Source: Candidatus Gottesmanbacteria bacterium
GTDB lineage: Bacteria; Patescibacteriota; Microgenomatia; 2-02-FULL-39-11
NCBI GenBank assembly: GCA_016186795.1
Contig: JACPKY010000002.1
Location: 350,748 to 414,747 of the forward strand
Direction of reading: 5' to 3'
DNA length: 64,000 bases
This document shows, one piece after another, positions 18,287-43,171 of this stretch. The notes under the pieces were generated by a model, which was given only the letters and a program-made list of their open reading frames with translations, did not search any database and was not told where the DNA came from. The number at the start of each line of letters is the position of its first letter. Position 1 is the first letter of the stretch. Made by a program: the position numbers and the translations under genes.

Positions 18287-21200
18287 TTATTGTGGTAATT
18301 TATTATCCGAAACAAGTTGGATAAGAACATACGTAGGGGTGAAATCGATGATCTTGTAATGCCGAAGCGTTAGATCGGGATTGGTTGCGTCGTTTATTAG
18401 TTCTTTCGTCAAATCGTCAAAGGCAACACTGACGTAATAATCTGCACCTTTCCCGATAAGCTCGTCAATTGAACCTTGAACAATCGGCCATCCAGCTCTT
18501 CGTGTTTGATATAAAAAGGCTGTATCTCCACCGTATGGTGCAATTACTAGTGCTTTGGTGGAGGTCTTTCGCTCCACGATACTCCCTGCTTCAACAATTT
18601 CAGGATGATTGATATTGTAGTAATCGCGTACGTGATACCAACCGAACATGAATGAAAAGACCAAAATAGCAAGAAGAATAACTATTCGTAAGACTCGTGA
18701 TATAAGTTTTGTTGGTATTTCAAAAAGAAAGACTATGCCTTTGGCAGCAAAAATAGAGATTATAGGTATTGTCAGTACTTGGTAATAATCATGCCGTACA
18801 TTTCCTGTTGCAAAAACAATAAGATACAAAAGAGTCCCAATTCCAAACCAATAGAGAAACCATCCTTCTTTTTTGGGCCGTGCCAATATACCGAAAAGAA
18901 GAAGCGGCAATCCCCAGTACCCGGCAATGAGTCGGACTAATCGGTCTGCAAAAATCCAATAAAAGAAAGCCCCCTTAAACCGAATTCCATCCCCATTCAA
19001 AAGCCACATACTTGCAGGAATCCCCTCGGGGAAATGGCTTATCCAATAGCGCCAGAAAAGAAAAGGCACACTAATAATTACAAAATACAACATAAGAATA
19101 AGAATTGATTTTTTCGTATATCCATAGGCTTTAAACCAAATGTATACAAGGGGCAAAAATAAAAAGAGGGCGTATGGTTTTACGAGGAGCGCTGAGGCGC
19201 AAAAGAGAACGCTTACAATAAATAGTAATCCTGCTTTGAGTATTACTCTATTTTCAAAAGACAGTAATGTTTTGAATGTCGATACCAACCGATCAAAGAA
19301 ATAGATACTTCCAAGTGTTGTAAATACAAGAAACGGCTCTGGAAGAATGACTCTACTGAAATAAATATTATAGGGAAGGAATCCGAAAATTATAACGGAA
19401 AGGAACGCCTCGACCCTTCCTACGTATTTTCGTATGAGTGCAAAAAGAAATACCATGCTCCCTAAAGAAGCAAAAATCGAAGTCAACCTTCCTGAAACCT
19501 CAATATTGTACCCAACGAAAATCTTATCAATAATAACTGCTGCAAAGTTATACAGTGGAAACTCAACAAAACGGTATCCTTTGGGATTATCTTGTCCGGA
19601 AGCTACGTTGGAAAGATCATCATATGTTGGATACAAGAGATTCACGCCGTATTTTACGAAATTTCTGGTAACTGCCGATGTATCTGCTTGTCGCCATGAA
19701 TGCCAATCTGCCAGAGGAGTATTAATCTTATACAAACGAGCGTACAGTGAAAATGCTAAGACGACTCCTAAGAGAAAAGTATCACTTTTTATCATTGTAA
19801 GAGTCTTTGTTCGTATAGTATTTACAGTATCGGCAAGACCAGGAACTTGTGGCATTCCAACCTTTTCCTTATTCTGAGTTTGAAGTAAACGAATACCTGC
19901 AACTATTATGCCGACAATTGCCCAATACATGAATGCTACTTTCGAGGATTCATAGACGTCAATATAGATTGCGTTTACCAAAAGCCCAGCAACAATCCCT
20001 CCTAATCCCGCAGCTCCAGCAAAAAGAACTGGATCTTTCATGATTGGAATATTTCTCCAAAGATAGAACAAAATGATGGCTTGAATACTAAAAAATGCAA
20101 GGAATCCTAATATTCCTGTTTCACCAAGAGCACGGAGATAATCATTATCTGTCGATTCTGCTTCTGTAAATTGGTTGAATTGAGTTTTATTGAGTGTTGA
20201 GTATCCGCTTCCAAGCACCGGATTTTTTTTAAAGCCTGCAATTGCCATAGGCCAAAGGGCATCAAAACGAATTGCAGTTGAAAGATCATAGGTAAACGCA
20301 GTTTTTGAGTATGTCCGAGGAACAGCTGAAAGAGTACCTCCAGTTGGAATCATGAGAGGAAAATCCTCATTGACGTCACTTGGACGAAGAGGAGTTGGCG
20401 GTTGATCGCTTGAAGACGTTATCTGTGATAACTGATCTTTCGGATTATTCACGAGAAAGACGGCTCGATTGTCGGGAGGTTTACCAAATGGAGATAATAC
20501 CAAAAGCTTGATACCACCTAATCGTTCCTCAATTTTAAGAAGTTTCGTAAACCGTTCAGACAAATCTCCAAATGAAAGCATGACAAATATCGAAAGTAAT
20601 AGGACAAAAATCCACCGTTTCATTGACCAAAAAAAACCTTTGCGAAACATCCAAAAGAAAAACATCATGGTAATTCCCGCAATGTACGCAAGAAAGGAAG
20701 TCCTTGATGCAGTAAGGATAAGTGTCCAAAATACAGCTGCAATTGCACCGAGGAGGGCAATTTTTCCCAAAACATGTTTAATCGAGAAAAAAAGACTCCA
20801 GAAAAGAATCAGTACCATCATGGTAAATGCCGCCAGATCATAATGGCCTCCAAATGTGGATAGCACGCGGGCATGCTGAGTAAGGTAGAGCATCCATCCT
20901 TTTGCAAACTCTCGGTTCATCGTGGAGAATGCTGGCCAGTAGAGGTATTTTTGACCAAACCCATAGAAGGCAACAGCCAGAGAGGTGATAATCAAAATGC
21001 CAAGGTATATTTTTAGAGTCTTCGTATTTTTGATAGATGAGTAAAACACAAAAAAGAGAGAGAAATACTCAATACGTCGAAGAAAATGTAATATAACTTT
21101 CTGAATATGTAGAAGCTCAAATGGAACGGTCCGAATGATAAATACGGCCGAAATAAGTGAGAGTAGTCCTATGGTCAAATACAATGCGATGGGTTTAGCG

Positions 21201-21427
21201 AGCGGATTTCCTCGTAGTTCGACTTTTTTCCGCCATAGAGAAATTAACCAGAGGATAAGGGTAACTGAAACAAAAAAATCCTCAAGTCTGACACGCACAA
21301 TATATCCCGGCAACACGTCAAACAACGGAAGCTTCGGATACAATGGTATAAAAATGAGAAGAAATCCGGCTAGAAGAGAGAGATGGTTATTGTCTAGCCA
21401 TTTCAAAAGCTTTCGCATAAAGACCAC
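18287..21427 (-). CDS. 1046-aa polytopic membrane protein. It is a fusion of an O-antigen ligase/polymerase-like (Wzy_C) N-terminal half and a GT-C (PMT/ArnT-like, polyprenyl-phosphate-sugar dependent) C-terminal half.
   Basis: N-terminal half has more than 10 TM helices with a Wzy_C-like segment (STFGGHYDLAAF...). The C-terminal half begins with another TM bundle and a conserved acidic loop (YPTYDDLSNV...FVEFPLYNF) like GT39/GT83 enzymes, followed by a soluble C-terminal domain. Confidence 0.5.
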   Translation of the reverse strand: MVFMRKLLKWLDNNHLSLLAGFLLIFIPLYPKLPLFDVLPGYIVRVRLEDFFVSVTLILWLISLWRKKVELRGNPLAKPIALYLTIGLLSLISAVFIIRTVPFELLHIQKVILHFLRRIEYFSLFFVFYSSIKNTKTLKIYLGILIITSLAVAFYGFGQKYLYWPAFSTMNREFAKGWMLYLTQHARVLSTFGGHYDLAAFTMMVLILFWSLFFSIKHVLGKIALLGAIAAVFWTLILTASRTSFLAYIAGITMMFFFWMFRKGFFWSMKRWIFVLLLSIFVMLSFGDLSERFTKLLKIEERLGGIKLLVLSPFGKPPDNRAVFLVNNPKDQLSQITSSSDQPPTPLRPSDVNEDFPLMIPTGGTLSAVPRTYSKTAFTYDLSTAIRFDALWPMAIAGFKKNPVLGSGYSTLNKTQFNQFTEAESTDNDYLRALGETGILGFLAFFSIQAIILFYLWRNIPIMKDPVLFAGAAGLGGIVAGLLVNAIYIDVYESSKVAFMYWAIVGIIVAGIRLLQTQNKEKVGMPQVPGLADTVNTIRTKTLTMIKSDTFLLGVVLAFSLYARLYKINTPLADWHSWRQADTSAVTRNFVKYGVNLLYPTYDDLSNVASGQDNPKGYRFVEFPLYNFAAVIIDKIFVGYNIEVSGRLTSIFASLGSMVFLFALIRKYVGRVEAFLSVIIFGFLPYNIYFSRVILPEPFLVFTTLGSIYFFDRLVSTFKTLLSFENRVILKAGLLFIVSVLFCASALLVKPYALFLFLPLVYIWFKAYGYTKKSILILMLYFVIISVPFLFWRYWISHFPEGIPASMWLLNGDGIRFKGAFFYWIFADRLVRLIAGYWGLPLLLFGILARPKKEGWFLYWFGIGTLLYLIVFATGNVRHDYYQVLTIPIISIFAAKGIVFLFEIPTKLISRVLRIVILLAILVFSFMFGWYHVRDYYNINHPEIVEAGSIVERKTSTKALVIAPYGGDTAFLYQTRRAGWPIVQGSIDELIGKGADYYVSVAFDDLTKELINDATNPDLTLRHYKIIDFTPTYVLIQLVSDNKLPQ

Positions 21428-22328
21428 GACGCTTTGGGTATTTTCCGATTATACCAAATACAATAATGCGTAACAACGCTCCTAATGCTAGAATCATCCG
21501 AAGAATTATACGTCTTCCAAAAGAGTAGTGCTTTTTATATAGTGATAGAAGACCTTGAAATTCCTCTACAATTCCGCTCTCTCCCTTTTCTTTTGATGAA
21601 CCGCCTTTGTAGTGATAGAGAGGACTAGAAGAAGTGAAAAGCACTCTATACCCGGCTTTCCGTATGCGGTAACACCACTCAACTTCCTCTCCGTACATAA
21701 AGAAACGTTCATCCAAAGGTCCAACTGCATCAATCACGTCTCTTCGGATGCAAAAACATGCACCGCTCACCCAATCGACCAACGTATCTTTCTGATACAA
21801 AGATGTATCGGTTATATGATACGGTCGTATCAGACGTTGGATCCATGGAATATCATCCAAAAATAACATCCAGAGAACTACGCGCAAAAGTGTGGGAGAA
21901 AATCCGGCAGACGGTTGGATTGAGCCGTCTGCATTAAGAAGTTTTCCCCCTGTTACTGCAAGATGTTTGAGGTGGAAAAAGGGGGAGATGATATTTTTAA
22001 GTGTTGTGGGAAATACTTTTGTATCACTATTTAATAGAAGAATAAACTGTCCAGATGCCTTTTTTATCCCTTGATTATTTGCTTTGGCAAACCCGACATT
22101 TCTCGTGTTTTTAATAACTTGAACAAAAGGAAATCTTGTCCGAACCATCTTTATACTTCCATCTTTTGATGCGTTGTCAACAACAATAATCTCAATCGGT
22201 ACCCAGTTTTTCTTTTCGTACTCTTCTTTAAGCGAGAAAAGACAATCAGATAGAAGATTCCTCGTATTGTAGTTTACGATTATGACACTCAACGTAAGGA
22301 TCCCGGAAACGTAAGACTTCTTCTTCAT
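21387..22328 (-). CDS. Glycosyltransferase family 2
   Basis: LSVIIVNYNTRNLL...IIVVDNASKDGS signature. Confidence 0.8.
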   Translation of the reverse strand: MKKKSYVSGILTLSVIIVNYNTRNLLSDCLFSLKEEYEKKNWVPIEIIVVDNASKDGSIKMVRTRFPFVQVIKNTRNVGFAKANNQGIKKASGQFILLLNSDTKVFPTTLKNIISPFFHLKHLAVTGGKLLNADGSIQPSAGFSPTLLRVVLWMLFLDDIPWIQRLIRPYHITDTSLYQKDTLVDWVSGACFCIRRDVIDAVGPLDERFFMYGEEVEWCYRIRKAGYRVLFTSSSPLYHYKGGSSKEKGESGIVEEFQGLLSLYKKHYSFGRRIILRMILALGALLRIIVFGIIGKYPKRRGLYAKAFEMARQ

Positions 22329-22351
22329 ACAAAGGGGCAGGATTTAGGCGA

Positions 22352-22981
22352 TTACTGAAAGAGTCTTGCTCGGCCTATTCGGTAGTTGGGTTTTGATAAT
22401 TTCCTCTCTCCAATTTTTTCGGCTGGAACACCAGCAACAATAGTAAAAGGATCTACATCTTTTGTTACAACAGCTCCAGCTGCAACGACAGCACCAATCC
22501 CAATATGAACTCCTGGAAGGATCGTAACTCTCGGACCAATAAATACATAGTTGGAAATATTGACTTCTCCATACTCAACAGCGAAATCTTGACTATGAAT
22601 ATCGTGTTGCGAGTTGTATATCAAAACTTGCGAAGAAATAGCAACGTGACTACCAATAATTAATCGCGCTCGACCATCGAGAAATGCGTGGTCTCCGACA
22701 ATTGTATCTTCTCCAATCGTTATTCCTCCTGGTTGATAAAAGTTAGCAAACATATGAATGGTTGAGCTTTTTCCAATTTTAATACCGACCAAACGATACA
22801 GAAGTCTCCTCACCCAATGAATGGGAATATGCCCAACAAATCGCAATATCATAAGCTCAAAATCAAGGAAAATATTAAACACTCGAGTGATAAACTTTCC
22901 CATGGCTTGATTTACCGTGAGCGGTTTCCCCATTCTATCTCGTATTACTACCATAGAGGGAAATTCTACTTTATATATCAA
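22352..22981 (-). CDS. Sugar O-/N-acetyltransferase of the left-handed beta-helix (hexapeptide repeat) family
   Basis: Tandem hexapeptide repeats (IGEDTIVGDHAFLDGRARLIIGSHVAISSQVLIYNSQHDI...IGPRVTILPGVHIGIGAVVAAGAVV). Confidence 0.75.
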   Translation of the reverse strand: MIYKVEFPSMVVIRDRMGKPLTVNQAMGKFITRVFNIFLDFELMILRFVGHIPIHWVRRLLYRLVGIKIGKSSTIHMFANFYQPGGITIGEDTIVGDHAFLDGRARLIIGSHVAISSQVLIYNSQHDIHSQDFAVEYGEVNISNYVFIGPRVTILPGVHIGIGAVVAAGAVVTKDVDPFTIVAGVPAEKIGERKLSKPNYRIGRARLFQ

Positions 22982-22987
22982 AATATA

Positions 22988-24118
22988 TCAAATATGTACA
23001 TTTTCTAGGACTTTTAGCGTTTGCTTCGCACATTGACCCCAATCGAAGCGTTTCACCTCCTCTAACCCTCGTCTTATCATTATATCTCGGAAGTTTCTCT
23101 CTGCCATAACTTTTGAGAGTCCCTCGGCAATACTTTCGGATTGTAAGGGATCTACCAAAACCCCAGCGTTTCCGACAATTTCGGGAAGAGATGTCGTTTT
23201 ACTTACAACAACAGGGCATCCACAAGCCATAGCTTCAATAGCGGGTATACCAAATCCTTCGTAGAGACTAGGTAAGACAAAACACTGGGCACCACGGTAT
23301 AATACCGAAAGAATTGAGTTGGAAACGTAGTTGAGCCAAATGATCCTGTTTTTTAGAGGTGATCTTCCTATTTTTTCAAAAATTGGCTCGGTAAGCCAAC
23401 CTTTTTTTCCTACAAGAACAAGTGATATATCATGTTCTTTTTGAATTGTTTCAAACGCATCAAGAAGTTTTGTGATGTTTTTTCTTGGCTGTATCGTCCC
23501 GACAAAGAGGATATATCGGCCACGAATTCCAAGACGTTTTATAAGATCTTGGTCTTTTGTTTTGAGTCTATCTTTGCGGAAACTTTTTTTATCATACCCT
23601 GGGTAGGTAACAACAACTCGATCGGGAGAAACTTTATACGCATCAATGATAGAATTTCGTGAGAAGTGACTAATCGTAAGAATAGAAACAGCTTTTTTCA
23701 CAGAATATGCTGTCCACTCTTTTAATTGATATAGATCTTTTTTTCGGAAAAGTTCTGGAAAGAAGAGAAATGATACGTCCATAATAGACATAACGTGAGG
23801 AAGTGGGGAGAATCGAGGTACATAATGAGAGGGACTAAAAAATACATCTATCTTATCTCTTGAAAGATATAGCTCCAGTGGTAAAGCTATTTGAGTCCAT
23901 AATTTTGATGGTCCAAAAACTTTATATCTCCAAAAATCGGAAATTTTCGGCAAATCGGGAGATGGAGCGTTCTTAAGATATACAATATAGCGATTGGTGG
24001 GCTTATTTATCCTTCTCCTTTCAAGATCATTCAGGTGAGAAAGAAGTTGATATGCATATTGTCCAATTCCAACACGCTCTTTCGTATTCGCCTCGTTTCC
24101 ATCGATACCGATTGTCAT
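22988..24118 (-). CDS. Glycosyltransferase family 4
   Basis: YEGFGIPAIEAMACGCPVVVS motif. GT-B architecture. Confidence 0.85.
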   Translation of the reverse strand: MTIGIDGNEANTKERVGIGQYAYQLLSHLNDLERRRINKPTNRYIVYLKNAPSPDLPKISDFWRYKVFGPSKLWTQIALPLELYLSRDKIDVFFSPSHYVPRFSPLPHVMSIMDVSFLFFPELFRKKDLYQLKEWTAYSVKKAVSILTISHFSRNSIIDAYKVSPDRVVVTYPGYDKKSFRKDRLKTKDQDLIKRLGIRGRYILFVGTIQPRKNITKLLDAFETIQKEHDISLVLVGKKGWLTEPIFEKIGRSPLKNRIIWLNYVSNSILSVLYRGAQCFVLPSLYEGFGIPAIEAMACGCPVVVSKTTSLPEIVGNAGVLVDPLQSESIAEGLSKVMAERNFRDIMIRRGLEEVKRFDWGQCAKQTLKVLENVHI

Positions 24119-25269
24119 ATCTGACGTTTTCCAATCATTTCGTATAAGTGAATAACTTTTCGTGCATGACTATTCCAGTTAAAACGGGCTACATATCCTG
24201 AAGTATCTTTAATAAGATTTGTCCGTAAATCACTATCTACGATTAACTGAACTAGTTTTTGAGAGATCTCAACAGAGTCTGTGGGGTCAATGATAAGTGC
24301 GTGGTCTTTTACCAACTCCTTGAGACTTCCTCGATTTGAAGCAATAACAGGACACCCACAGGCCATGGCCTCAAGAATCGGCAGTCCAAAACCCTCATAA
24401 AGGGAGGGATAGACAAATACCCGTGCGCCACTAAAGAGAGCCGGTAAATCTCTTTGTTCAACGAAACCAAGAGTACGGACGTATTTTGAAGAAGAAATTT
24501 TTTCTCCCCAGCCAGGATTTCCTACAATAACGAGCTCAAGAGGCTTTCGCATTGCCTTTATAAGTGGATGTCTCTCAAATTCCAGAAACGCGGCGATGAG
24601 TGTTTTGAGATTCTTTCGCGGTTCAACAATGCCGACACTCAAAACATAATCGTCAAAAAGCGAATATTTTTGCTTTACTCGTTCTATTTCCTGCTTTGAC
24701 TGCGGTTGAAAGTCATTCGATACTCCCGGATAGATAACATGCACAATGGTATCAGAAACTTTCAAGATACGGGTAATATCTTCTTTTGTACTATATGAAT
24801 CTGAAATAATACAGTCCACCTCTTTTTGCACCCATCCCAGTCTTTTTTTTTGCGTGTCAACAATATATTGACTTGAAGTCTCTGGGTATTTGAGCGGAAT
24901 AACATCATGTACTGTCGTTATTTTCACTGCTTTTGTTGGCGGTTGAATCCAGTCTGATGAGTGAAAGATGTCAATATCGGGAAGAAAAATATCAACCGGG
25001 AGTATGTGGAGAGAGTTCCATACAAAATTAATAACACTTGGCGGAAGGAAAATAAATTTTTTAGAAACTCCGTTATGAATCTTTTTCATCTCGGAATGAA
25101 ATTGTTCAAGTATATTCATCTGATGAAAAGCCACACCAAAGAGGATATACTCGTTTTTCTTATCAACAGATAGAAGCGATGAAATAAGGTTCCGCGTATA
25201 CGTAGCGACGCCACTTCCTTGATATACAATTTGTGAAATATCAATTGCGATTTTCATAGAAGAATTCAA
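24115..25269 (-). CDS. Glycosyltransferase family 4
   Basis: YEGFGLPILEAMACGCPVIAS motif. Paralogous to the upstream GT4. Confidence 0.85.
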   Translation of the reverse strand: MNSSMKIAIDISQIVYQGSGVATYTRNLISSLLSVDKKNEYILFGVAFHQMNILEQFHSEMKKIHNGVSKKFIFLPPSVINFVWNSLHILPVDIFLPDIDIFHSSDWIQPPTKAVKITTVHDVIPLKYPETSSQYIVDTQKKRLGWVQKEVDCIISDSYSTKEDITRILKVSDTIVHVIYPGVSNDFQPQSKQEIERVKQKYSLFDDYVLSVGIVEPRKNLKTLIAAFLEFERHPLIKAMRKPLELVIVGNPGWGEKISSSKYVRTLGFVEQRDLPALFSGARVFVYPSLYEGFGLPILEAMACGCPVIASNRGSLKELVKDHALIIDPTDSVEISQKLVQLIVDSDLRTNLIKDTSGYVARFNWNSHARKVIHLYEMIGKRQI

Positions 25270-26011
25270 GTTGAAAAATCTGTCTGTATGTGGGTCCCCT
25301 TGTGATCATAAGAAGAGGCAGGAAAAAAAGCAAAATTTTCCGAAAAAATATATCCACAAAAAAACTTCTTGTCATCCACCCCTGCATAAGAAAATAACGA
25401 ATGCGAAAATCCTCATTCCCAAAAATAGAGATTGTAAATGGAATATGTTTCTTTTTTGCATATCGTCTCAAACGGGCAACAAAATCAGATTGTTCCGGAA
25501 GACCATATTTTACCTGTTCTTCTAAAAAAAAGTACGATCTGCCAAATTTCTCCTGATACTTTTTATCAAGAAGTACATCTTGTTGGTAAGATCTCCTCCC
25601 ACAAGGTACTGCAAGAATGATTTTGTACTTTCCAACTCGAACTAACTCTTTAATCACCCGATCTCGAGAAGAGGGAAGGATATGCTCAAGAGCATCAATG
25701 CTAATTACAACATCAAACGCATTATCTGAAAAAGGGAGGTTTGTAGCATTTGCCACAACTTGTTGTAGTAATTTATGAAATGGTGGAGAAAAATGCGTAT
25801 CGACGCCTACCACCTTCCGCTTTAAGTATGGAGCAATACCTAGTCCTCCTGACCCAACCTCCAAAACTGAAACATTGTCTCCAAGAATTTTTATTTTTTC
25901 CACAATTGGAAGATACCGGATAGCAACTTCTGGATGCCAACGAGAGAAATGCCCGAAGTTGGCAAAAACGCCCGCAATATCAGATTTTTTCATACCGATA
26001 AATAAACCCAA
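25241..26011 (-). CDS. Class I SAM-dependent methyltransferase
   Basis: Motif I LEVGSGGLG and the post-I motif DVVISIDALEHI. Confidence 0.65.
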   Translation of the reverse strand: MGLFIGMKKSDIAGVFANFGHFSRWHPEVAIRYLPIVEKIKILGDNVSVLEVGSGGLGIAPYLKRKVVGVDTHFSPPFHKLLQQVVANATNLPFSDNAFDVVISIDALEHILPSSRDRVIKELVRVGKYKIILAVPCGRRSYQQDVLLDKKYQEKFGRSYFFLEEQVKYGLPEQSDFVARLRRYAKKKHIPFTISIFGNEDFRIRYFLMQGWMTRSFFVDIFFRKILLFFLPLLMITRGPTYRQIFQLEFFYENRN

Positions 26012-27377: not shown

Positions 27378-27380
27378 AGG

Positions 27381-33053: not shown

Positions 33054-33056
33054 TAT

Positions 33057-34830: not shown

Positions 34831-34850
34831 AAACAGTAAATTAAATCCCT

Positions 34851-35747
34851 ATGCAAAAGATGCGCTGCGCTTTGTGTGGAAGAGATGAAAAACCACAGCT
34901 TCTATACCCAGAGAGTATAAATTTCGAGCGTATTAGCAAAGAAACTTTCTCAGCAAGACGTATTCCCGAAAAAGTTCATTATCGCCTCATGCGATGCCAA
35001 AGATGTACACTTATCTATTCTTCACCCATACTTACAGAGGACAAAATAAAACTCCTATATAAGCAAAGCAAACTTACCTATGCCGAAGAAATTCCAAGTC
35101 TAAAAAAAACATACGGAGATTATCTTTCTAAAACACTTCCTTTTGTAAATAAAAATCCCCATCTTCTTGAAATTGGAGGAGGAAATGGTTTTTTCCTTGA
35201 AAAAGCACTGGAGTTGGGAGTAACAAAAGTCAATGGAATTGAACCCAGTCGCAGTGCAATTAATGCAGCAAGAAGTGATATCAAAAAAAAATTGATTGCT
35301 GATTTTTTTCCTTCAGAGAAAATAAAACCCTCTTCATATGACATTATCTGTATATTTCAAACACTTGATCATGTCACTGACCCAAACCGATTTTTACGCG
35401 CGTGTCATACCGCACTGCGAAAAAATGGAGTAGTGCTTTGCATTCTGCATGATACCGAGGGTCTGTCAGTAAAAATTTTAGGTGAGCATTCACCTATTTT
35501 TGATATAGAACATATCTATCTTTTCAATAAAAAAACACTCCAGTTGATTTTTGAGAAGAATAACTTTACACCTCTTGTTACTTTTAGCGTGGTTAATACA
35601 TTCCCACTTCGATATTGGATACGAATGTTCCCATTCCCCTCTATAATCAAACCATTATTTCTATCACTACTTCAAAACATTCACCTTGACAATTTACCAC
35701 TTAGTATGCGCGCGGGAAATATTGGAATTATTGCGAGGAAATCATAA
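34851..35747 (+). CDS. SAM-dependent methyltransferase with an N-terminal zinc ribbon (sugar C-/O-methyltransferase-like)
   Basis: CALCG...CQRC Cys4 pattern at the N-terminus, then motif I LLEIGGGNGFF. Plus strand, divergent from the SDR gene. Confidence 0.6.
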   Translation: MQKMRCALCGRDEKPQLLYPESINFERISKETFSARRIPEKVHYRLMRCQRCTLIYSSPILTEDKIKLLYKQSKLTYAEEIPSLKKTYGDYLSKTLPFVNKNPHLLEIGGGNGFFLEKALELGVTKVNGIEPSRSAINAARSDIKKKLIADFFPSEKIKPSSYDIICIFQTLDHVTDPNRFLRACHTALRKNGVVLCILHDTEGLSVKILGEHSPIFDIEHIYLFNKKTLQLIFEKNNFTPLVTFSVVNTFPLRYWIRMFPFPSIIKPLFLSLLQNIHLDNLPLSMRAGNIGIIARKS

Positions 35748-36729
35748 CTTTATTATACTTTTTAGCAATTTTACTCCAGGAAAATTTTTCTGCCTGTTTT
35801 CGGGGTTTAGTTCTGAAATCGTAAGATATAGCTTGTTGTAAAACTCGGGCGTATTCCTTCTTGTTTTCCGGATCAGCATACAAACCAGCTTTTCCTATAA
35901 TTGCACGTCTGTTCTCATCATCTGGTGCAACAACCGGTATATTGCAAGCTAGAGCCTCAAGGTAGACAAGACCAAATGCTTCTGACTCTCTACTAGGCAG
36001 GGAGAAAACAGATGCACTTCTATACAGACTTGGCAACTCACTGTGAGATAGATGTTCAATATAGATAAATCTCGTACCTAAAAGCTTCTTCCCTTGGGCA
36101 ATTAATTCTTTTTTGCGGGGTCCATTCCCTACAAGAACAAGATTTGCCTTAGGTAAAAAAGAGACTGCGTATATTAACCTGTCAATTCGTTTATAAGTAT
36201 CAAGAGCAGAAACACAAAGGATGATCGGGTGTGACATATGTAAAGGATATTTTGGTCCTTGCGGAATAAAAAGATCCGTATCAATCCCATTAGGAATATA
36301 TTCGACTTTTTTGCCGTTTCGAAGTTTTTTTGCCCAACTGGCTGCATAAGGTGAAAGCGCTACAAAAATATCAGGATTTCCGAAAACGATATTCCACAAG
36401 TCATCTTTCCCAACACCAGCATGACCGCTTATGAGAATTTTTGATTTTGTAAAATAGCGGATTATTCTTACTAGAAGAGCTTGCAATCCACCATTGACAG
36501 GAATAATCCAATCATATTTTCCGGCATGTAGTTTCGGAAAAACCCGTAAACTAAAAATAAATACTAAGAAATGATAGAAAAGTGTCGTATGTGAAACAAC
36601 CGGTAAACTTCTAGTTTGAAATATATCCACCTTGTGAGAAGAAGATAACTCTTTTTCCATTGCAGATACGAACACTTCTGCTCCTCTTTCAACTTTTCCG
36701 TTATAGATATTTAGAAATGCAATTTTCAT
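35728..36729 (-). CDS. Glycosyltransferase family 4
   Basis: C-terminal SEAFGLVYLEALACNIPVVAPDD motif. Confidence 0.75.
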   Translation of the reverse strand: MKIAFLNIYNGKVERGAEVFVSAMEKELSSSHKVDIFQTRSLPVVSHTTLFYHFLVFIFSLRVFPKLHAGKYDWIIPVNGGLQALLVRIIRYFTKSKILISGHAGVGKDDLWNIVFGNPDIFVALSPYAASWAKKLRNGKKVEYIPNGIDTDLFIPQGPKYPLHMSHPIILCVSALDTYKRIDRLIYAVSFLPKANLVLVGNGPRKKELIAQGKKLLGTRFIYIEHLSHSELPSLYRSASVFSLPSRESEAFGLVYLEALACNIPVVAPDDENRRAIIGKAGLYADPENKKEYARVLQQAISYDFRTKPRKQAEKFSWSKIAKKYNKVMISSQ

Positions 36730-37583
36730 AGCAAGCTATTCCAAAGCTTTCTCTTTATCCTTTTTATTGGGGTAATGAATGCGGCGGTAATTTGGTATGC
36801 TCTTGAACGTCCACTAGCAACGTCTGCAATGTATGCGGGATGTCTTTGGAAAACTTTGGGAATTTGCGATTTGTCAATTCTGTATCCTGTCTCTATTTTA
36901 AACTTGTTCCTATGAAATGTATCAAAAAGTGCTTTACCTTTTGAGGAACGTTCCAGATACATGGCATGAAATAATTTTCCATGGGTTACGGCAAATTTTT
37001 CCTTTGTATGATCTATAATCGGCTTCTCTTTATCATCATAGTAACCTTCATATGGATATATTCCCTTAACGGTTATTTGAGGAATATTTTTTTTATTAAA
37101 AAGACGTAGAACTAAATGTCCAGATTGTCCGAAAAGAGAATATGACCCCACATTTTCATCCTGATAGTGATAGATGTCTCCCAGCAAATCAAATCTTCTA
37201 ACAACAATCCCTTTGAGCGTTTCCCCAGATTTTATAATAATGTGTAAAATCTCTTTACAGAGGGTTTCTGGGTAAATTTCATCACCGTCAACGATCCAAA
37301 ACCAGTCAGTTTCTGTCTTTTCAATTTGCTTATTACGAATAGCACCAATTTCTGAAGGGTGTGAAATAGTTTTTTGTTCAAAAATAACTTTTGCCGTCTT
37401 AAAACTTTTGATGAGTTTAACGGTATTATCTGAAGAACCGGTATCAGTCACGAGTATTTCTTTGGCATAAGGAAGTACAGAAGAAATTGCATACCAGATA
37501 AACCTATCCTCATTTTTTACCACCATATGAATAGTCAAAGAATTACTCGCTTTCATGTTTTTTCCGAAGATATATAAAAACAA
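36726..37583 (-). CDS. Glycosyltransferase family 2. Probable start near 37556.
   Basis: LTIHMVVKNEDRFI...ILVTDTGSSDNT signature. Confidence 0.7.
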   Translation of the reverse strand: MFLYIFGKNMKASNSLTIHMVVKNEDRFIWYAISSVLPYAKEILVTDTGSSDNTVKLIKSFKTAKVIFEQKTISHPSEIGAIRNKQIEKTETDWFWIVDGDEIYPETLCKEILHIIIKSGETLKGIVVRRFDLLGDIYHYQDENVGSYSLFGQSGHLVLRLFNKKNIPQITVKGIYPYEGYYDDKEKPIIDHTKEKFAVTHGKLFHAMYLERSSKGKALFDTFHRNKFKIETGYRIDKSQIPKVFQRHPAYIADVASGRSRAYQITAAFITPIKRIKRKLWNSLL

Positions 37584-38841
37584 GATATGCAGTAAAAAAA
37601 AGTGTTATGCCGTAAGCAATAATAAGTGAATATGCTGTACCCATCCTTCCAAATCGTGGAATAAAAAACAGATTACCAATAATAACGACAAACAATTGAA
37701 TAATGCTGTTTACTGACAATATATGAGGTTTGCGAAGATAATAAATTGCAAGACTTACAACTGGAATAGAGGCAACAAAAAAAATCATAGCGAGTAAAAG
37801 AAGTTGAAATACAGAAACTGCACTTTCCGCTTTTTGCCCAAAGAGAACGGTAATAAATGGGTGTGCAAAAAGAATAAGAACTAAAATTGTAGTGACAATT
37901 CCACCAGTGCCGATGGTTACTTTTATCATGAAGTCTTTTAATCTCTTTCTATCAGTTGTGGCAGTAAGTTTTGGAGCAATAACAGTTGAAAAACTTCCAG
38001 AAAGGAGTGGGTATATAGACACAACGCGAGAAGCAGTCGAGTAAATCCCTGCTTCAGTTGGATTTGTCAATGCAATAAGCATAAGTACATCTAACCTACT
38101 TGCCAAAGCCGTAAGTCCCCTTGCAACTCCAAGAAATGATGTAAATGAAATAAGATTTTTCAAATCAGAGATTGAGAAACGCGCTTTAAGAAATTTCACT
38201 CCAACAAATTTTATTGCTAATATTAGTAGAAGAATAACCATTACGGTATGAGCCCATAGGGCGTTATCAACGTTAAGAGTAGAAAATCCTAAAACCAGAA
38301 GGAGAAGAGCAAATCGGCTAGCTCCTCCAAAAGAAGAAAGAATCGAGACTTTAAAAAACATTTGCCGTGCTGAAAGAACATACTGCAAAAAATTAGCCAA
38401 AATCGTGCAAAAAATTCCTAGAGAGGTAATTTGGACAAGATAGGTAAGGTCTCTTGTATGAAAAAAAATTATAGAGAGAAAAGAAGATAAGAAAAATATT
38501 AATATACTTACGGTTCCTGCAACTCCCGCCTGAAGAAAAAAAGATGTTTTTAAAAATACCAGCAATTTCTGACGATCAGCCTCAAGCTTTGGAATAAATG
38601 CGGAAAGAGAGCTTCCGATACCTATATCAGTAAGATCAGATACTAAAAGAAGAAAAGATAAAAGTGCAGAAAAATATCCAAAATCTGCAAAACTTAAACC
38701 GCGAACAAGAACAACGGTAAACAGAAAAGCAAAAAAAGCAGAAATAATGTTTCCAGCAAAAACCATATATGTGTTTCGTGCTGTTGTTGAGAAAGCAAGA
38801 ATCCACGCTTTTCTTGTTATATGGGATATATATTTCTTCAT
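37543..38841 (-). CDS. wzx: Wzx-type oligosaccharide flippase (MOP/PST family)
   Basis: 432 aa, about 12-14 TM helices. N-terminal region typical of polysaccharide biosynthesis (PST) transporters. Confidence 0.65.
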   Translation of the reverse strand: MKKYISHITRKAWILAFSTTARNTYMVFAGNIISAFFAFLFTVVLVRGLSFADFGYFSALLSFLLLVSDLTDIGIGSSLSAFIPKLEADRQKLLVFLKTSFFLQAGVAGTVSILIFFLSSFLSIIFFHTRDLTYLVQITSLGIFCTILANFLQYVLSARQMFFKVSILSSFGGASRFALLLLVLGFSTLNVDNALWAHTVMVILLLILAIKFVGVKFLKARFSISDLKNLISFTSFLGVARGLTALASRLDVLMLIALTNPTEAGIYSTASRVVSIYPLLSGSFSTVIAPKLTATTDRKRLKDFMIKVTIGTGGIVTTILVLILFAHPFITVLFGQKAESAVSVFQLLLLAMIFFVASIPVVSLAIYYLRKPHILSVNSIIQLFVVIIGNLFFIPRFGRMGTAYSLIIAYGITLFFTAYLVFIYLRKKHESE

Positions 38842-39968
38842 GCGTATTTTCGGATTATAGCAGCTATTACTTCTATTTCCTCGTTTCTCAAAAATACTGA
38901 AGATGGAAGACTTACTCCATGACGAGAGAGATAATTTGAGACTGGAAATTCACCTTTCATTCTATAAGGTGGAAGTATGTGAAGAGGATAAAAAAACGGG
39001 CGAGTTTCAATATTTTCTTTACCGAGATTCTTCATAAGCTTATCGGAAGTCAGAGAATATGGTTTACGAACAAGGATAGAGTACATCCAATAAACACTTC
39101 TTTCACCCGCTTTTCTTGGATGGGGTATGATCCCCGGAATATCTTTTAATTTCATGGTATATTTTTGAGCAATCAAAACTCTTTTTTGCAAAAACTGATC
39201 AATTCTTTCAAGTTGAGCACATCCAAGAGCAGCTTGGATATTCGTCATACGATAATTAAATCCAACAACTGAATGATAATACTGTCTCTTTAAGTCCTGT
39301 CCATGGTTCCGAAGCATTCTCATCTTCTCCACTAAGCTAGAATTATTTGTCGTTATCATTCCTCCCTCACCGGTAGTTATTATTTTATTTCCATAAAAAC
39401 TAAAACACCCGACATCGCCAATCGATCCTACTTTTTTCCAATTTGTCTTATTTTTATTCTTTAAACTGACCTCGGCTCCGTGTGCTTCTGCTGCATCCTC
39501 AATAATTTTTAAATTGAATTTTTGTGCAATCGGTATAATACTTTCCATATCTGCTGGTCTCCCGTATAAATGGACAACGATTATTGCTTTCGTATGCTTT
39601 GTCACTTTCTTCTCCAGCATTTGTGGAGAAATTCCCCATGACGAGTCGTCAACATCAATAAAAACCGGAGTGGCTCCAGTAAAAGTTACCGCATTTGCTG
39701 TTGCCACAAATGTTAAATCTGGAATGAGCACTTCATCTCCTTTTCCAATCCCCAATCCAACAAGTGATAAATGGAGGGCAACTGTTCCATTTGACACAGC
39801 TATTGCATACTTAGTGCCTATATATTTTGCAAATTGTTCTTCAAACTTGGTGATAAAATTCCCTTTGGAGGAAATCCACGATGAGGAAAGGCATGACTCT
39901 ACATACTTCGCCTCGTTTCCGTGTAAATCGGGGTGAGCAATTGGTATAAATGCTCTTTTCTGCTTCAT
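38838..39968 (-). CDS. DegT/DnrJ/EryC1/StrS-family PLP-dependent sugar aminotransferase
   Basis: DLHGNEAKYVxxCLSSSWISSKG...AIAVSNGTVALHL, and the catalytic-lysine region FSFYGNKIITTGEGG. Confidence 0.9.
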   Translation of the reverse strand: MKQKRAFIPIAHPDLHGNEAKYVESCLSSSWISSKGNFITKFEEQFAKYIGTKYAIAVSNGTVALHLSLVGLGIGKGDEVLIPDLTFVATANAVTFTGATPVFIDVDDSSWGISPQMLEKKVTKHTKAIIVVHLYGRPADMESIIPIAQKFNLKIIEDAAEAHGAEVSLKNKNKTNWKKVGSIGDVGCFSFYGNKIITTGEGGMITTNNSSLVEKMRMLRNHGQDLKRQYYHSVVGFNYRMTNIQAALGCAQLERIDQFLQKRVLIAQKYTMKLKDIPGIIPHPRKAGERSVYWMYSILVRKPYSLTSDKLMKNLGKENIETRPFFYPLHILPPYRMKGEFPVSNYLSRHGVSLPSSVFLRNEEIEVIAAIIRKYA

Positions 39969-41566
39969 GATTTGGGCTTGAGGATAAAGACGTGAATCGA
40001 TCGAAATCGCTCTCTTGATAGAACTGTATAGTTTGAGAGGAATTGATACTTACGTTCCTGCCACTTTGCAATATCTTCGTTTTTCCCTCGGGAATCTATC
40101 AGAGAAAGTAAAACAGTATACTGCGGAGATTCCTTTTTTAGAGATGACCTGTAAAGCCAAGCAAAATAACTATCCATGTATGAGCTGACTGGTGTTCCAA
40201 TTGTATATTCAGAAAGATACCTATACCCTCCAAATCGAGGACACTCTCCAACTGCTTCCAGCGAATAAGTACTGTCTCCTATATATGCACGAACGTATGA
40301 AAGTGCGGCAATTTTCTCTTGATACGAATAGCTGGAATAGGATGTGAAGAGAGTTATTGAGTTTTGCACAATAAAAATAGTAAGAAAAACGATACCTGCC
40401 ACTTTCCCTTCTTTTTTCTTCCATATACGATCGAGAAGATAGGCAAGAATAAGGGCAAAGTAAGGAAAGAAGTAAAGTAAATAGTACTCATAGAATCTCC
40501 GTGTAAACAAAAAAAGCACTATCCCTGTTATAAAAAGAATTCTGTATATATGAACGCAAAAAAGATACTCCAACCTTCCAAAAAGTTGTTGTCGTCTGTT
40601 TCTTCTCATTTGAAAAAAGAGAAAGAGAAATACTCCTAAAGACAGAAGAGAGATAGTCCATATCTCCGGTGGTGCAATTCTCTGTATCGCAGAAAGTTCT
40701 TTGCACTGACCAGTTTCAACAAACATATCACTTGATGCTGGCATCCACAAAAATCTTCCTAGTGAGGAGACAAAAATACCCAGACGGTCAGAAAGTGTAG
40801 AGATAGAGTTCCCTGGTGAGGTTTGAATAATTAGATGAACAAGTGCACGAGTATTCGTAAAATTATGGCGAAGATCAAAAAGAATAATGGAAAGTTGTAG
40901 GGCCAAAAAAATTCCAATAGATAAAAGTGCTGCTTTTTGTGAAATATGTTTCCGCTTACTCCATAAGACAAGGAAAATTAACGGAGCAAATACAACAAAC
41001 GAAAGATGGCTTTGAATACCAAGTCCAAATACTAACGCCAGAAGTAGTAGATACTTATAAGTATTGGTAGAAAATTTTACAAGGATATACCCCATAAGCA
41101 CTGACAAAAGGGGTATTGGAGTAGGATTCCAAAAGTTCCTATCATAATAAGAAGCTAAAAAGGAACAACCATAAAGGAGTGCTCCTATGAAACCAACACG
41201 TTCGGAAAATAAAGATCGACCCACATGGAAAATAAGGTATGTCGTCAATACTCCAAGAATGGATGCGGTAATTCCCCACCCCACGGGATTTCCATCAAAA
41301 AGGGCGAAGGGAATAGCGGCAAAGTAAATAAACGCAGGCCCCAGATACAAACCTGTATCTGAAGCATTTACTCCAATAAGAGGAAAATGGCGAAATGAGA
41401 CAATATTCTTTACAATAAAAGCTTCATATTCTTGATCCATTCCAAAAAAGAGAAAACTTTGGAAGTTATAAAAACGAAATAAAAGACTTGCACCAAGAAG
41501 AAAAAGTAGCCAAAGTTTTTTCTTTTTTGTAAAAACCGTGGAAATTTTCTGAAATTCCTTAGACAT
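39965..41566 (-). CDS. Polytopic membrane protein, candidate GT-C-like glycosyltransferase
   Basis: 533 aa, more than 12 TM helices, an acidic first-loop segment (FFGMDQEYEAF) and a C-terminal soluble domain. Confidence 0.4.
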   Translation of the reverse strand: MSKEFQKISTVFTKKKKLWLLFLLGASLLFRFYNFQSFLFFGMDQEYEAFIVKNIVSFRHFPLIGVNASDTGLYLGPAFIYFAAIPFALFDGNPVGWGITASILGVLTTYLIFHVGRSLFSERVGFIGALLYGCSFLASYYDRNFWNPTPIPLLSVLMGYILVKFSTNTYKYLLLLALVFGLGIQSHLSFVVFAPLIFLVLWSKRKHISQKAALLSIGIFLALQLSIILFDLRHNFTNTRALVHLIIQTSPGNSISTLSDRLGIFVSSLGRFLWMPASSDMFVETGQCKELSAIQRIAPPEIWTISLLSLGVFLFLFFQMRRNRRQQLFGRLEYLFCVHIYRILFITGIVLFLFTRRFYEYYLLYFFPYFALILAYLLDRIWKKKEGKVAGIVFLTIFIVQNSITLFTSYSSYSYQEKIAALSYVRAYIGDSTYSLEAVGECPRFGGYRYLSEYTIGTPVSSYMDSYFAWLYRSSLKKESPQYTVLLSLIDSRGKNEDIAKWQERKYQFLSNYTVLSRERFRSIHVFILKPKS

Positions 41567-41605
41567 TTATTTCATTATAGCAAGTTATAGAAAAAACCAC
41601 TTTTT

Positions 41606-43171
41606 TTATTTCCCTTTACCTCTGTCAGTTACATAGGTAAGCAAAAAGGTGACCAATGAAATTATTGTAACCAACCAAAGGAAAATCGAGTATACACCTT
41701 TAAAAAACCATGGCTTGTACTGACTTACTTGTGTAAGGAAAATGGAAAAGGAAGAGATATCATAATATGTTTTTGCGATGGTGTATAAAGCATAGATATT
41801 TAAACAAATCATCAAGAGAGATAAAATAAAAATACTCCACGTATGAAGAGTACTATTGAAAGAAAAAAGTTGTCGCCATCCTATAAGAAGTATAACCATA
41901 TAGATCGAAATCGTAGGAAATAGGTACCTTCCTTGCACTCCCAAAACGTATCCTCCGGTATACCAGGAAAACCAATCGTAGTAAAAAATACTTGCGATGT
42001 ATACAAAAGCAACTCCCGCAAGAAAAAGGAGTGATTGGACTCTTCGGGAATACCACATCTTTCTTTTTACAAAGATAAAAAATGCAGGAATTAGTCCAAC
42101 AACTGCCACAAAAACTATGCGATTTATAATTCTGTGAATAGAACGAGGGTATGTCACTCCTAACCAATCATAAATGCCCCAAAACCAAGGCATTACCTCT
42201 CTTACGCTATGAGGTAGAGAATACTCCCATGTAAATTTCAATAAACTTGAAATATTATTTGTCTTCATAAACTGATCAATAAGTCCTACTGATCCAAAAT
42301 TTTTCTTGTATAACAAGATAAAGACCGCACAGATGATAAATGGAAGTATTATGACTCTTTTTGAAAAATCTTTTCGTCGTAAATCTCGAACGGCTACAAA
42401 GAAAAATAGAAGTACAACGAGAGGAAGTGTAATAATAAACTGAGGTTTCGAAAGGACACAAAAAAGAGAAGAAATAGAAAGAAATAACGCTCTATTCAGA
42501 TTAATCCCTTTTAATACCATAAGTGTTCCCGCAATAAGAAAAACAATGAAAAGAAAATTTCCCAGCGCATCACTATTTACTCCAACATTGGCAAATATCA
42601 TCATCGGCTGGAATCCTACGAGGGCAGCAATAGCGATACTTTCTTGGGTTTTTTGAAAAATACGCTTTGCAAGAGAGTAGGTGATATATATGGTACCCAT
42701 AAAAAGGAATAAGGACCATATACGTGTTGTGACAACTCGAGTAAAAAGGTCAAAGTGGTAGAAAAATTTATAAAAAAAACTTGCTGGAATATAGTACAGA
42801 GGAGGGTACCGGGTGGATTCGCGATGAACCAACTGTTTTCTTGTGTCCTCTTTTGATAAAGCTGCTAGGCTTGCCTCATACATACCATAGAACGAATCGG
42901 TATATTCAATCCGATATTCAGGATGGTGAGTAAAACGATTCTTTCCCAAATTATCCCGAAACGTACCTAAGAGTATTTCTGACGTATAGACTTCTTGTGT
43001 AAGATCGTTTTCTTCATCAATTGGCATACGTCCATTTTCAGCAAAAAAAGCTACTTGTCCAAAATGTGCTTGTTCATCAGGAAAATGCCAGAGTGGCACC
43101 AGGGACACCCATACCAGTGCATTGAAAAATACTGCGAGGAAAAAACTTGTCATTATCCTTGGGCGAACCAT
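41606..43171 (-). CDS. Polytopic membrane protein, DUF2142-like (GT-C-like)
   Basis: N-terminal WHFPDEQAHFGQV motif (the PDExAH pattern remembered for DUF2142) right after TM1, then multiple TM helices. Confidence 0.45.
   Translation of the reverse strand: MVRPRIMTSFFLAVFFNALVWVSLVPLWHFPDEQAHFGQVAFFAENGRMPIDEENDLTQEVYTSEILLGTFRDNLGKNRFTHHPEYRIEYTDSFYGMYEASLAALSKEDTRKQLVHRESTRYPPLYYIPASFFYKFFYHFDLFTRVVTTRIWSLFLFMGTIYITYSLAKRIFQKTQESIAIAALVGFQPMMIFANVGVNSDALGNFLFIVFLIAGTLMVLKGINLNRALFLSISSLFCVLSKPQFIITLPLVVLLFFFVAVRDLRRKDFSKRVIILPFIICAVFILLYKKNFGSVGLIDQFMKTNNISSLLKFTWEYSLPHSVREVMPWFWGIYDWLGVTYPRSIHRIINRIVFVAVVGLIPAFFIFVKRKMWYSRRVQSLLFLAGVAFVYIASIFYYDWFSWYTGGYVLGVQGRYLFPTISIYMVILLIGWRQLFSFNSTLHTWSIFILSLLMICLNIYALYTIAKTYYDISSFSIFLTQVSQYKPWFFKGVYSIFLWLVTIISLVTFLLTYVTDRGKGK

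Follow-up and report, generated by a model that had tools for sequence, protein, structure and literature searches.

A putative Wzx/Wzy-type surface-glycan locus with seven GT-C-like membrane proteins in Candidatus Gottesmanbacteria

We analyzed a 64,000-nucleotide stretch of DNA, here called the window, from contig JACPKY010000002.1 of Candidatus Gottesmanbacteria, a member of the Microgenomates in the candidate phyla radiation (CPR). A sequence-only reading of the same DNA had correctly taken it for part of a small CPR-type genome. It had also described seven polytopic membrane proteins resembling glycosyltransferases (GTs) of the GT-C fold, here called A to G, and a DPM1-like polyprenyl-phosphate sugar synthase, and had proposed that they form an extracytoplasmic glycosylation network. 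We found all eight open reading frames (ORFs) exactly at the positions and on the strands that had been given. In contrast, we found that the network is not free-standing. The GT-C-like proteins are embedded in a lipid-carrier pathway with an initiating polyprenyl-phosphate glycosyl-1-phosphate transferase (PGT), a Wzx flippase, and a Wzy_C-type protein, and because these genes surround them, we suggest that all seven belong to a lipid-carrier glycan assembly locus. We consider the chances somewhat better than even that this DNA holds one co-directional, Wzx/Wzy-type cell-surface glycan locus with unusually heavy extracytoplasmic elaboration. The genes and folds were observed directly; the reactions described below are predicted from sequences and models.

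The locus runs from 10.2 kb to at least 63.8 kb of the window. Its genes are co-directional, and at 52 kb or more it takes up ~4.6% of the 1,118,283-bp contig. Between 12.2 and 63.8 kb, every intergenic gap is 60 bp or less, and all but two genes are on the minus strand. Each ORF from 10.2 kb onward is glycan related, lacks a Pfam family, or carries a Pfam domain of unknown function (DUF). The GT-C-like proteins account for 7 of the 54 ORFs in the window. They are accompanied by ~16 cytoplasmic GTs identified with Pfam and NCBIfam (seven GT4, seven GT2, one GT10-like, and one GT11-like) and by modifying enzymes, namely one hexapeptide acyltransferase, four methyltransferases, and one carbamoyltransferase. 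The locus also encodes one split and one fused transketolase-like enzyme.

Six of the membrane proteins form a conserved backbone

We compared the window with loci of relatives: three around homologues of A (L012 to L014), three around homologues of D (L015 to L017), one from Levybacteria (L005), and one around a relative of G (L018). The three A loci share the order GT2, B (PMT_2), methyltransferase, GT4, GT4, hexapeptide transferase, (GT2), and the A fusion, followed by GT4, GT2, GT4, GT4, (NTP_transferase, which is not in L014), PGT, and DUF4012. In L013 and L014, RecO comes next after DUF4012. The three D loci each cover a stretch of the order B, GT2, C (DUF2079), D (on the opposite strand), GT4, GT2, Wzx, (DegT), E (PMT_2), (a ~360-aa protein), and F (DUF2142). 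L015 extends far enough to include the end of the A gene, L017 starts from the GT4 genes upstream of B, and L016 starts just before C. Across L012 to L017, the counterparts of A to F are 31 to 57% identical to the window proteins. By gene order and sequence identity, A to F are the conserved syntenic backbone of this lineage.

G and all genes beyond F are not conserved in L015 to L017. By analogy with serotype-variable regions, we suggest that a GT2/transketolase cassette, G, and a distal region with nonulosonic-acid and fucosyltransferase-like genes are strain-variable decoration modules. In L015, a Y1 transposase gene (IS200-like) and an M24 peptidase gene (positions 4825 to 5469 of that locus) separate the methyltransferase gene from the B homologue. 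This insertion in an otherwise syntenic locus suggests that such loci are remodelled by mobile elements.

A is a WaaL-like and PMT-like fusion

A (18287 to 21427, minus strand, 1046 aa) had been read as a fusion of a Wzy_C protein and a GT-C protein, and Pfam matches of its homologues, profile comparison, and structure all bear this out. Its Wzy_C-like part covers residues ~1 to 520 (Pfam Wzy_C at residues 229 to 446, 1.2e-17), and a PMT_2-type GT-C part covers residues ~545 to 930 and is followed by a C-terminal globular domain. Hydropathy indicates ~22 to 24 transmembrane (TM) helices overall, ~12 of them in the C-terminal half. NCBI annotates A as an "O-antigen ligase family protein." We found more than 1,500 homologues of A. 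The best 120 measure 950 to 1080 aa, share 51 to 72% identity, and with few exceptions are full length. Many of these 120 carry precomputed matches to Wzy_C plus PMT_2 and/or PMT, and ~80 (51 to 65% identity) carry precomputed PF13231/PF02366 matches. In the window copy itself, the PMT_2 match did not reach an E value of ≤0.01. In comparisons with hhalign, the C-terminal half of A aligned with B (97.3%), with E (95.3%), and with four PMT-like proteins of the Levybacteria locus (96.9%), and the N-terminal half aligned with none of these.

We found no PDB match with the family profile of A, and sequence searches of PDB with the family profiles of D and G and with the single sequences of C and F returned nothing meaningful. 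The fold assignments for A and D therefore had to rest on models. In the AlphaFold2 model of A (pLDDT 76; the loop at residues 290 to 437 is below pLDDT 50), the N-terminal half, which exceeds the Pfam threshold for Wzy_C, has a WaaL-like fold. Among solved structures, the C-terminal half matched Pmt4 (score, 19.9), STT3B (19.9), ALG12 (19.5), Pmt2 (18.6), PglB (17.1), and ArnT (15.1), and the C-terminal tail resembles the C-terminal domain of AglB. The motif ADWHSWRQxDT lies at residues 573 to 583, and its D574 and D582 are invariant in 34 sequences.

Taken together, sequence comparison and modeling indicate that A is a genuine WaaL-like and PMT-like fusion that is conserved across Microgenomates at 51 to 72% identity. 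We found no published description of a Wzy_C and PMT_2 fusion in the open-access literature. A differs from the WaaL/Wzy_C family (7tpj), including PglL, PilO, and WsaB, by its fused PMT_2-type GT-C and its C-terminal globular domain. In contrast to the setting of WaaL ligases, we know of no CPR bacterium that makes a lipid A-core. The Wzy_C half also has an invariant motif, ESTDNDYLRxLGETG, at residues 424 to 438, with an Asp seemingly where WaaL-type ligases have a catalytic His.

B and E are PMT_2-type GT-C proteins, and C and F are putative GT-C proteins

B (25980 to 27377, minus strand, 465 aa) and E (39965 to 41566, minus strand, 533 aa) match Pfam PMT_2 at 1e-9 (39.2 bits) and 5.4e-14 (53.2 bits), both above the family cut-off of 26.1 bits. 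With hhalign, B aligned with E at 97.1%, and each aligned with the Levybacteria PMT proteins at 99.4%. These Pfam matches and profiles support the view that B and E are GT-C enzymes.

C (28234 to 29727, minus strand, 497 aa) and F (41606 to 43171, minus strand, 521 aa) had been called DUF2079-like and DUF2142-like, and Pfam agrees (5.7e-53 for C and 3.5e-21 for F). Both families belong to the Pfam GT-C clan. Using alignments of syntenic orthologues, we found links to PMT-like proteins that were in register but modest (hhalign, 65% for C and 83.5% for F). As single sequences, C and F gave hhalign probabilities of <4% against the family profiles of A and D. From the family labels and these weak-to-moderate profile links, we regard C and F as putative GT-C proteins. 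We found no relevant literature on DUF2079 in open-access text.

The acidic motifs that had been noticed in this group, DE in B and PDExAH in F, are real and conserved in orthologues. After the first TM helix, B has WLD32E, C has GWD42LGFFD47, E has GMD44QE46YE48, and F has PD32E33QxHFGQ, each kept in every orthologue aligned. The sequence-only reading had also given all seven proteins more than 12 TM helices and a soluble C-terminal domain. All seven are strongly hydrophobic. The helix count holds for A and for G (~16 by hydropathy) and is borderline for D (~12 by hydropathy, ~13 membrane helices in the model); it fails for B (~10 to 11), C (~9), E (~11), and F (~11). The C-terminal domain is missing from F, which has a TM helix near its C terminus, a 9-residue tail, and its large soluble part in a 123-residue loop after the first TM helix.

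D and G belong to a DUF6798 superfamily

D (29752 to 31425, plus strand, 557 aa; NCBI HYW55_03065) matches Pfam DUF6798 in its C-terminal part only (3.4e-17). Solved structures matched by the model of D include STT3B (17.4), PglB (14.9), ALG12 (14.7), AftA (14.5), Pmt4 (14.4), AglB (13.9), and ArnT (13.8). The best of these are the oligosaccharyltransferases (OSTs) STT3, PglB, and AglB, and the match takes in the C-terminal globular domain. An acidic residue of the first loop, D49, is present in 21 of 24 family sequences. The modeling thus supports a GT-C fold for D. However, identity to STT3, PglB, and AglB is 10 to 14%, and D lacks the WWDYG motif, having RAIVVDWLV instead (W475 preceded by D474, which is present in 21 of 24 sequences). 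We therefore do not class D as an OST.

G (51946 to 53955, minus strand, 669 aa; NCBI HYW55_03165) is a rare polytopic protein encoded among the variable nonulosonic-acid genes and has a sub-threshold match to DUF6541 only. A word-indexed search with G recovered G alone. When 1.84 billion representatives were searched exhaustively, 214 relatives came up, of which only 6 scored below 1e-30. The G family aligned with the D family over 420 columns, including the C-terminal domain (hhalign, 97.4%; E value, 1.4e-11). Eleven of 40 G family members match DUF6798, and matches to DUF2298 and DUF6541 also occur. We count G as a GT-C protein because it is homologous to D.

The nearest relative of G (P0150; 34% identity) lies in another glycan locus, L018, with PGT and Alg13/14-like genes and a PMT_2 gene. 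Near P0150, at positions 6369 to 8402 of that locus, is a 677-aa protein without a Pfam match that possibly belongs to the G/DUF6798 superfamily, and a radical SAM/SPASM gene is nearby.

The seven proteins thus differ in how they were assigned to GT-C, as the sequence-only reading had done for all of them: A and D by structure, B and E by Pfam and profiles, G through D, and C and F by family label and modest profile links. It had also raised the prospect of transporter folds, and we found no transporter-like top matches for the modelled A and D.

The DPM1-like GT2 belongs to an accessory cassette

The GT2 at 31409 to 32131 (minus strand, 240 aa; Pfam Glycos_transf_2, 4.4e-22) had been described as DPM1-like. 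Consistently with this, it matches PfDPMS (5mlz, 1.9e-14, residues 3 to 227), GtrB (8e-13), and ArnC (3e-10, residues 4 to 210) in PDB over its full domain. The NCBIfam models PgfS (residues 3 to 205), ArnC (4 to 215), PpgS (3 to 195), AglJ, and dolichyl-phosphate-hexose transferase also cover the whole domain. PgfS is the best of these, and all scores are far below the equivalog cut-offs, so we call this GT2 family-like and not an equivalog. In the other six GT2s of the window, the NCBIfam synthase models matched only the N-terminal ~100 residues. We found no hydrophobic segment anywhere in the 240 aa of GT2 31409 by hydropathy and thus neither a TM helix nor the C-terminal TM or flippase module that would have pointed to a different role. 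The TM-less synthase subtype, known from human DPM1, the D2 domain of Mycobacterium tuberculosis (Mtb) Ppm1, and PpgS, needs a membrane partner. By sequence, the window has a single DPM1-like candidate, GT2 31409, which would be of this TM-less subtype.

We rejected two other GT2s as candidates. The one at 27381 to 28283 (minus strand; Pfam), a conserved neighbor of B and C with one C-terminal TM helix by hydropathy, is closest in PDB to GalT1 and chondroitin synthase and matches DPMS and ArnC at its N terminus only. The one at 44279 has two C-terminal TM helices, as would a GtrB-type enzyme, yet is closest to AglG and EpsD and not to synthases.

GT2 31409 opens a 4.3-kb cassette (31409 to 35747) between D and a GT4 gene. 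It is followed by a split transketolase-like enzyme (32124 to 33053 and 33057 to 33959, minus strand), a nucleoside diphosphate (NDP)-sugar 4,6-dehydratase-like enzyme (33844 to 34830, minus strand), and a methyltransferase (34851 to 35747, plus strand), all assigned with Pfam and NCBIfam. The five-gene cassette recurs at 44 to 54% identity in the Levybacteria locus, where four PMT/PMT_2 genes come directly after it in tandem and YfhO-like genes flank it. When we scanned a genome collection with GT2 31409, Levybacteria supplied the one close locus; GT2s from Rhodobacteraceae and Elusimicrobiota matched in the N-terminal half only and were disregarded.

The sequence-only reading had made GT2 31409 the partner of all seven GT-C proteins, a role that the comparison with relatives does not establish. 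The cassette is an insertion, and GT2 31409 is missing from three related loci that keep A to F, so it is not an obligate donor source for the conserved GT-C proteins. GT2 31409 is thus an accessory, probably mobile module and not the common donor source. As a class, however, DPM1-like GT2s do accompany these GT-C proteins (in L005, L014, and L015). In L015, a 245-aa TM-less DPM1-like GT2 (full-length matches to DPMS at 6e-18 and ArnC at 5e-15) lies two genes from the DUF2142 gene. In L014, a 667-aa protein (positions 4202 to 6205 of that locus) fuses a DPM1-like GT2 to PMT_2, and its GT2 part is 26% identical to GT2 31409 over 213 residues (3.5e-15). This fusion is a natural "Rosetta-stone" link between a donor synthase and a GT-C protein that act on opposite faces of the membrane.

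The split transketolase-like pair (32124 to 33959) has a fused thiamine diphosphate-enzyme counterpart at 49237 to 51180. The split pair travels with the 4,6-dehydratase-like gene, the methyltransferase, and the DPM1-like GT2. This neighborhood suggests that the transketolase-like enzymes branch or extend an NDP-4-keto sugar by two carbons rather than serve pentose-phosphate metabolism. The open-access papers that we found on sugar branching by transketolase-type enzymes dealt with antibiotic sugars only.

A proposed pathway and its alternatives

According to our model, the small PGT at 12182 would prime polyprenyl phosphate on the cytoplasmic face. Some 12 GT4 and GT2 enzymes, with the acyltransferase and the methyltransferases, would then build a lipid-diphosphate-linked oligosaccharide from NDP-sugars, including GDP-mannose supplied by the enzyme at 12843, and the MOP flippase at 37543 would export it. 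At the outer face, polymerization of the lipid-linked glycan or its ligation to an acceptor would fall to the WaaL-like half of A, and the PMT-like half of A together with B to F, and G in this strain, would add residues or attach chains from lipid-linked donors. GT2 31409 would make one lipid-phosphate-sugar donor, probably using an unusual NDP-sugar that the neighboring dehydratase, transketolase-like, and methyltransferase enzymes supply. Genes of the distal region would decorate the glycan with nonulosonic-acid, fucose-type, methyl, and carbamoyl groups, and G would serve as an additional GT-C protein. We consider a wall- or membrane-anchored glycopolymer the most likely acceptor and a protein the main alternative.

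Several observations weigh against this model. GT2 31409 has no membrane anchor of the kind typical of GtrB, ArnC, and PfDPMS, and its cassette is missing from L015 to L017, which keep the backbone genes. Within 12.2 to 63.8 kb, we found neither a small 4-TM ORF nor a GtrA-type flippase, and the MOP/Wzx gene at 37543 is the sole flippase-type gene. The export of a polyprenyl-phosphate sugar would thus need this flippase or a gene elsewhere. We found no LCP ligase or known anchor in the window, which would fit a protein acceptor too. No acidic column reaches ≥80% in the 40 sequences of the G family. For C and F, the profile links to PMT proteins are just 65% and 83.5%. We found no papers on Gottesmanbacteria glycosylation, CPR GT-C enzymes, or CPR wall polysaccharide in open-access text. 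Finally, beyond fold and family, we infer the donor, acceptor, product, and activity of every enzyme here from sequences and models.

The locus could instead serve mainly protein O-glycosylation, which we hold to be possible and believe only tentatively. According to this explanation, the Wzy_C domain of A would move a lipid-diphosphate-linked oligosaccharide en bloc to Ser/Thr residues of pilins, S-layer proteins, or other exported proteins, and the PMT_2-type GT-C proteins would add single sugars from polyprenyl-phosphate sugars, as do actinobacterial Pmt and streptococcal PgfM1/PgtC2. The Wzy_C family spans O-oligosaccharyltransferases (PglL, PilO, and WsaB) as well as ligases and polymerases. 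Consistently with a protein acceptor, A, B, and E belong to the PMT_2/PMT family, the C-terminal half of A has Pmt4 and Pmt2 among its best structural matches, and GT2 31409 scores best in NCBIfam against PgfS, though far below the cut-off of that model. A is also among the best-conserved proteins of the locus (51 to 57% identity versus 37 to 52% for most cytoplasmic GTs), which fits a housekeeping modification enzyme, and the window has no LCP-type wall ligase. Protein glycosylation by a GT2 and a GT-C protein is documented in a Gram-positive (streptococcal) setting (PMC12041528). However, the locus encodes no acceptor protein, and ~16 cytoplasmic GTs together with a domain of the ligase/polymerase type point to a glycan that is large or polymeric. 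A glycopolymer and protein O-glycosylation can, moreover, both hold.

We consider it rather unlikely that D and G, and possibly others, are en-bloc transferases or polymerases, OST-like or Wzy/EpsG-like, that use lipid-diphosphate-linked oligosaccharide donors. Several of the GT-C proteins would then need no polyprenyl-phosphate sugar synthase. The conserved D474-W475 in the C-terminal domain of D fits this idea, as do distant DUF6798 proteins that also match the EpsG polymerase family, and L015 to L017 keep D without an adjacent DPM1-like GT2. On the other hand, WWDYG is missing, the fold alone is silent on donor type, and the C-terminal tail of A matches the same AglB domain, so this domain is not specific to D.

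It is unlikely that some of the seven, G above all, are inactive or serve in scaffolding, chain-length control, or transport, leaving a smaller network: G has almost no close relatives and its family has no conserved acidic residue, but acidic first-loop motifs are kept in the orthologues of B, C, E, and F (31 to 57% identity) and in the A and D families, gene order is kept across ~1-Mb genomes, where dispensable genes rarely survive, and the top structural matches of A and D include no transporter folds.

Comparison with known systems

Other bacteria are well known to follow the general logic of our preferred model, in which a GT-C protein uses a lipid-linked donor after export. Systems made of a GT2 synthase, a flippase, and a GT-C protein that modify polysaccharides after export are documented and include GtrA/GtrB/Gtr* of Shigella and Salmonella, CsbB/GtcA/YfhO and Gac/Scc/Csd of Gram-positive bacteria, and Citrobacter GT136, in which a MATE/MOP flippase takes the flippase role (PMC11127046, PMC8035078 for the systems; PMC11127046 for the MATE/MOP flippase). 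DUF2142 proteins adjoin GT2 genes in streptococcal rgp loci (PMC9746298). Like these three-component systems, the locus described here combines a DPM1-like GT2 and polytopic GT-C proteins in a polysaccharide locus, with a MOP/MATE-type or other flippase and strain-variable modules. It differs in having six to seven GT-C proteins where each of those systems has one, in lacking a GtrA-type flippase, in the missing TM anchor of its GT2, in the tie between this GT2 and a dehydratase/transketolase-like cassette, and in its CPR host with a ~1.1-Mb genome.

A single synthase that feeds many GT-C enzymes has precedent in the actinobacterial polyprenyl-phosphate-mannose (PPM)- and decaprenyl-phosphate-arabinose (DPA)-dependent pathways. 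In those networks (Ppm1 with PimE, MptA, MptB, and Pmt; decaprenyl-phosphate-arabinose with EmbA to EmbC and AftA to AftD), many GT-C enzymes could share few donors, as here. Mtb Ppm1 D2 and PpgS are TM-less synthases like GT2 31409, and the structural matches of A and D include AftA, AftB, and AftD. In contrast to actinobacteria, the locus has no UbiA-type DPPR synthase, DprE, or galactan genes. The genes are dispersed there but form one Wzx/Wzy_C-type locus here, with the families DUF2079, DUF2142, DUF6798, and PMT_2. Compared with yeast Pmt1, Pmt2, and Pmt4 of GT39, actinobacterial Pmt, and ArnT (GT83), the PMT_2 proteins of the locus have no MIR domains, are shorter, and have another C-terminal domain. 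Each locus has three PMT_2 paralogues, one of them fused to Wzy_C.

What sets this locus apart is that a 1.1-Mb CPR genome has six conserved GT-C proteins, seven in this strain, in a single Wzx/Wzy_C-type locus. Sequences and models would add to this a widespread and highly conserved WaaL-like/PMT-like fusion, DUF6798 as a probable GT-C family, and a putative TM-less synthase tied to a dehydratase/transketolase-like cassette. CPR bacteria (Patescibacteria) have minimal genomes and are thought to be host attached. That six GT-C proteins are kept across relatives suggests a product central to surface biology, for example to attachment, phage or host recognition, or envelope integrity. The A-type fusion and DUF6798, with its OST-like fold, are uncharacterized families with confident models and are thus targets for biochemistry. 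More speculatively, and in our view improbably, the locus may represent a Microgenomates-wide envelope-glycan machine in which a bifunctional A couples en-bloc transfer or polymerization with glycosylation from lipid-phosphate sugars, alongside OST-like DUF6798 proteins (D and G) that attach glycans to proteins or to the wall. If this were true, it would mean a new kind of surface layer, possibly on pili or an S-layer, that mediates episymbiotic contact with a host.

Other genes of the locus and its surroundings

The genes of the locus listed here are on the minus strand. The locus begins with a DUF4012 single-pass membrane protein of 644 aa (10241 to 12175; Pfam DUF4012, 7e-21; one TM helix). 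It adjoins the initiating PGT in each of L012 to L014 at 42 to 53% identity, and we regard it as a candidate co-polymerase, chain-length regulator, or anchor. The small PGT (12182 to 12841; Pfam Bac_transf, 8e-61; NCBIfam EPS_sugtrans/WbaP catalytic domain) is 43 to 71% identical to its counterparts in L012 to L014. Next is a mannose-1-phosphate guanylyltransferase-like enzyme for GDP-mannose supply (12843 to 13925; Pfam NTP_transferase and ManC beta-helix; NCBIfam GMP_PMI, 1.4e-69). Four GTs that are syntenic in L012 to L014 follow (Pfam): GT4 (13922 to 15040), GT4 (15044 to 16162), GT2 (16166 to 17137), and GT4 (17088 to 18278).

Beyond A, Pfam identifies GT2 (21387 to 22328), the hexapeptide acyltransferase (22352 to 22981), GT4 (22988 to 24118), and GT4 (24115 to 25269), whose order is kept in L012 to L015 and L017. 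A SAM methyltransferase adjoins B (25241 to 26011; Pfam Methyltransf_11; 46 to 49% identity in L012 to L015). Between the cassette and E, Pfam and NCBIfam place GT4 (35728 to 36729), GT2 (36726 to 37583), the Wzx/MOP flippase (37543 to 38841), and a LegC-family aminotransferase (38838 to 39968). The genes at 35728 to 39968 are syntenic with their counterparts in L015 to L017 and 49 to 59% identical to them.

The variable distal part (43176 to 63840; Pfam and NCBIfam) starts beyond F and has no synteny in L015 to L017. It holds methyltransferases, GT2, GT10-like, GT11-like, and GT4 genes, two TIGR04396/BFO_1060-like proteins, and the fused transketolase-like enzyme. It also holds NeuB, a PseF-like cytidylyltransferase, an aldehyde dehydrogenase, a short-chain dehydrogenase/reductase (SDR), a carbamoyltransferase, and a 548-aa orphan protein.

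Parts of a nonulosonic-acid pathway lie at 47948 to 57320, 38838 to 39968, and 33844 to 34830. The set comprises a NeuB-type synthase, the PseF-like cytidylyltransferase, the LegC-family aminotransferase, and a LegB-like (LegB/RmlB-like) dehydratase, with the aldehyde dehydrogenase, the SDR, and a TIGR04396/BFO_1060-type putative transferase as further members. As predicted from sequence, these genes would place a sugar resembling sialic acid on the surface of a CPR cell. The GT10-like and GT11-like genes, of the fucosyltransferase family, adjoin each other (45239 to 46183 and 47073 to 47942). GT10 and GT11 enzymes make Lewis- and H-type epitopes in Helicobacter and animals. The carbamoyltransferase is of the NodU/CmcH type (58430 to 60265) and adjoins the 548-aa soluble protein, which has no Pfam or NCBIfam match (60269 to 61915).

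The first 9.5 kb of the window holds division and housekeeping genes, namely those for a Mur ligase, a penicillin-binding-protein transpeptidase, MraW, a class II aminoacyl-tRNA synthetase, and RecO. A 512-aa protein at 5468 to 7006, between the division genes and the glycan locus, has a PilM/FtsA-like actin-fold N terminus and a LytR_C C terminus.

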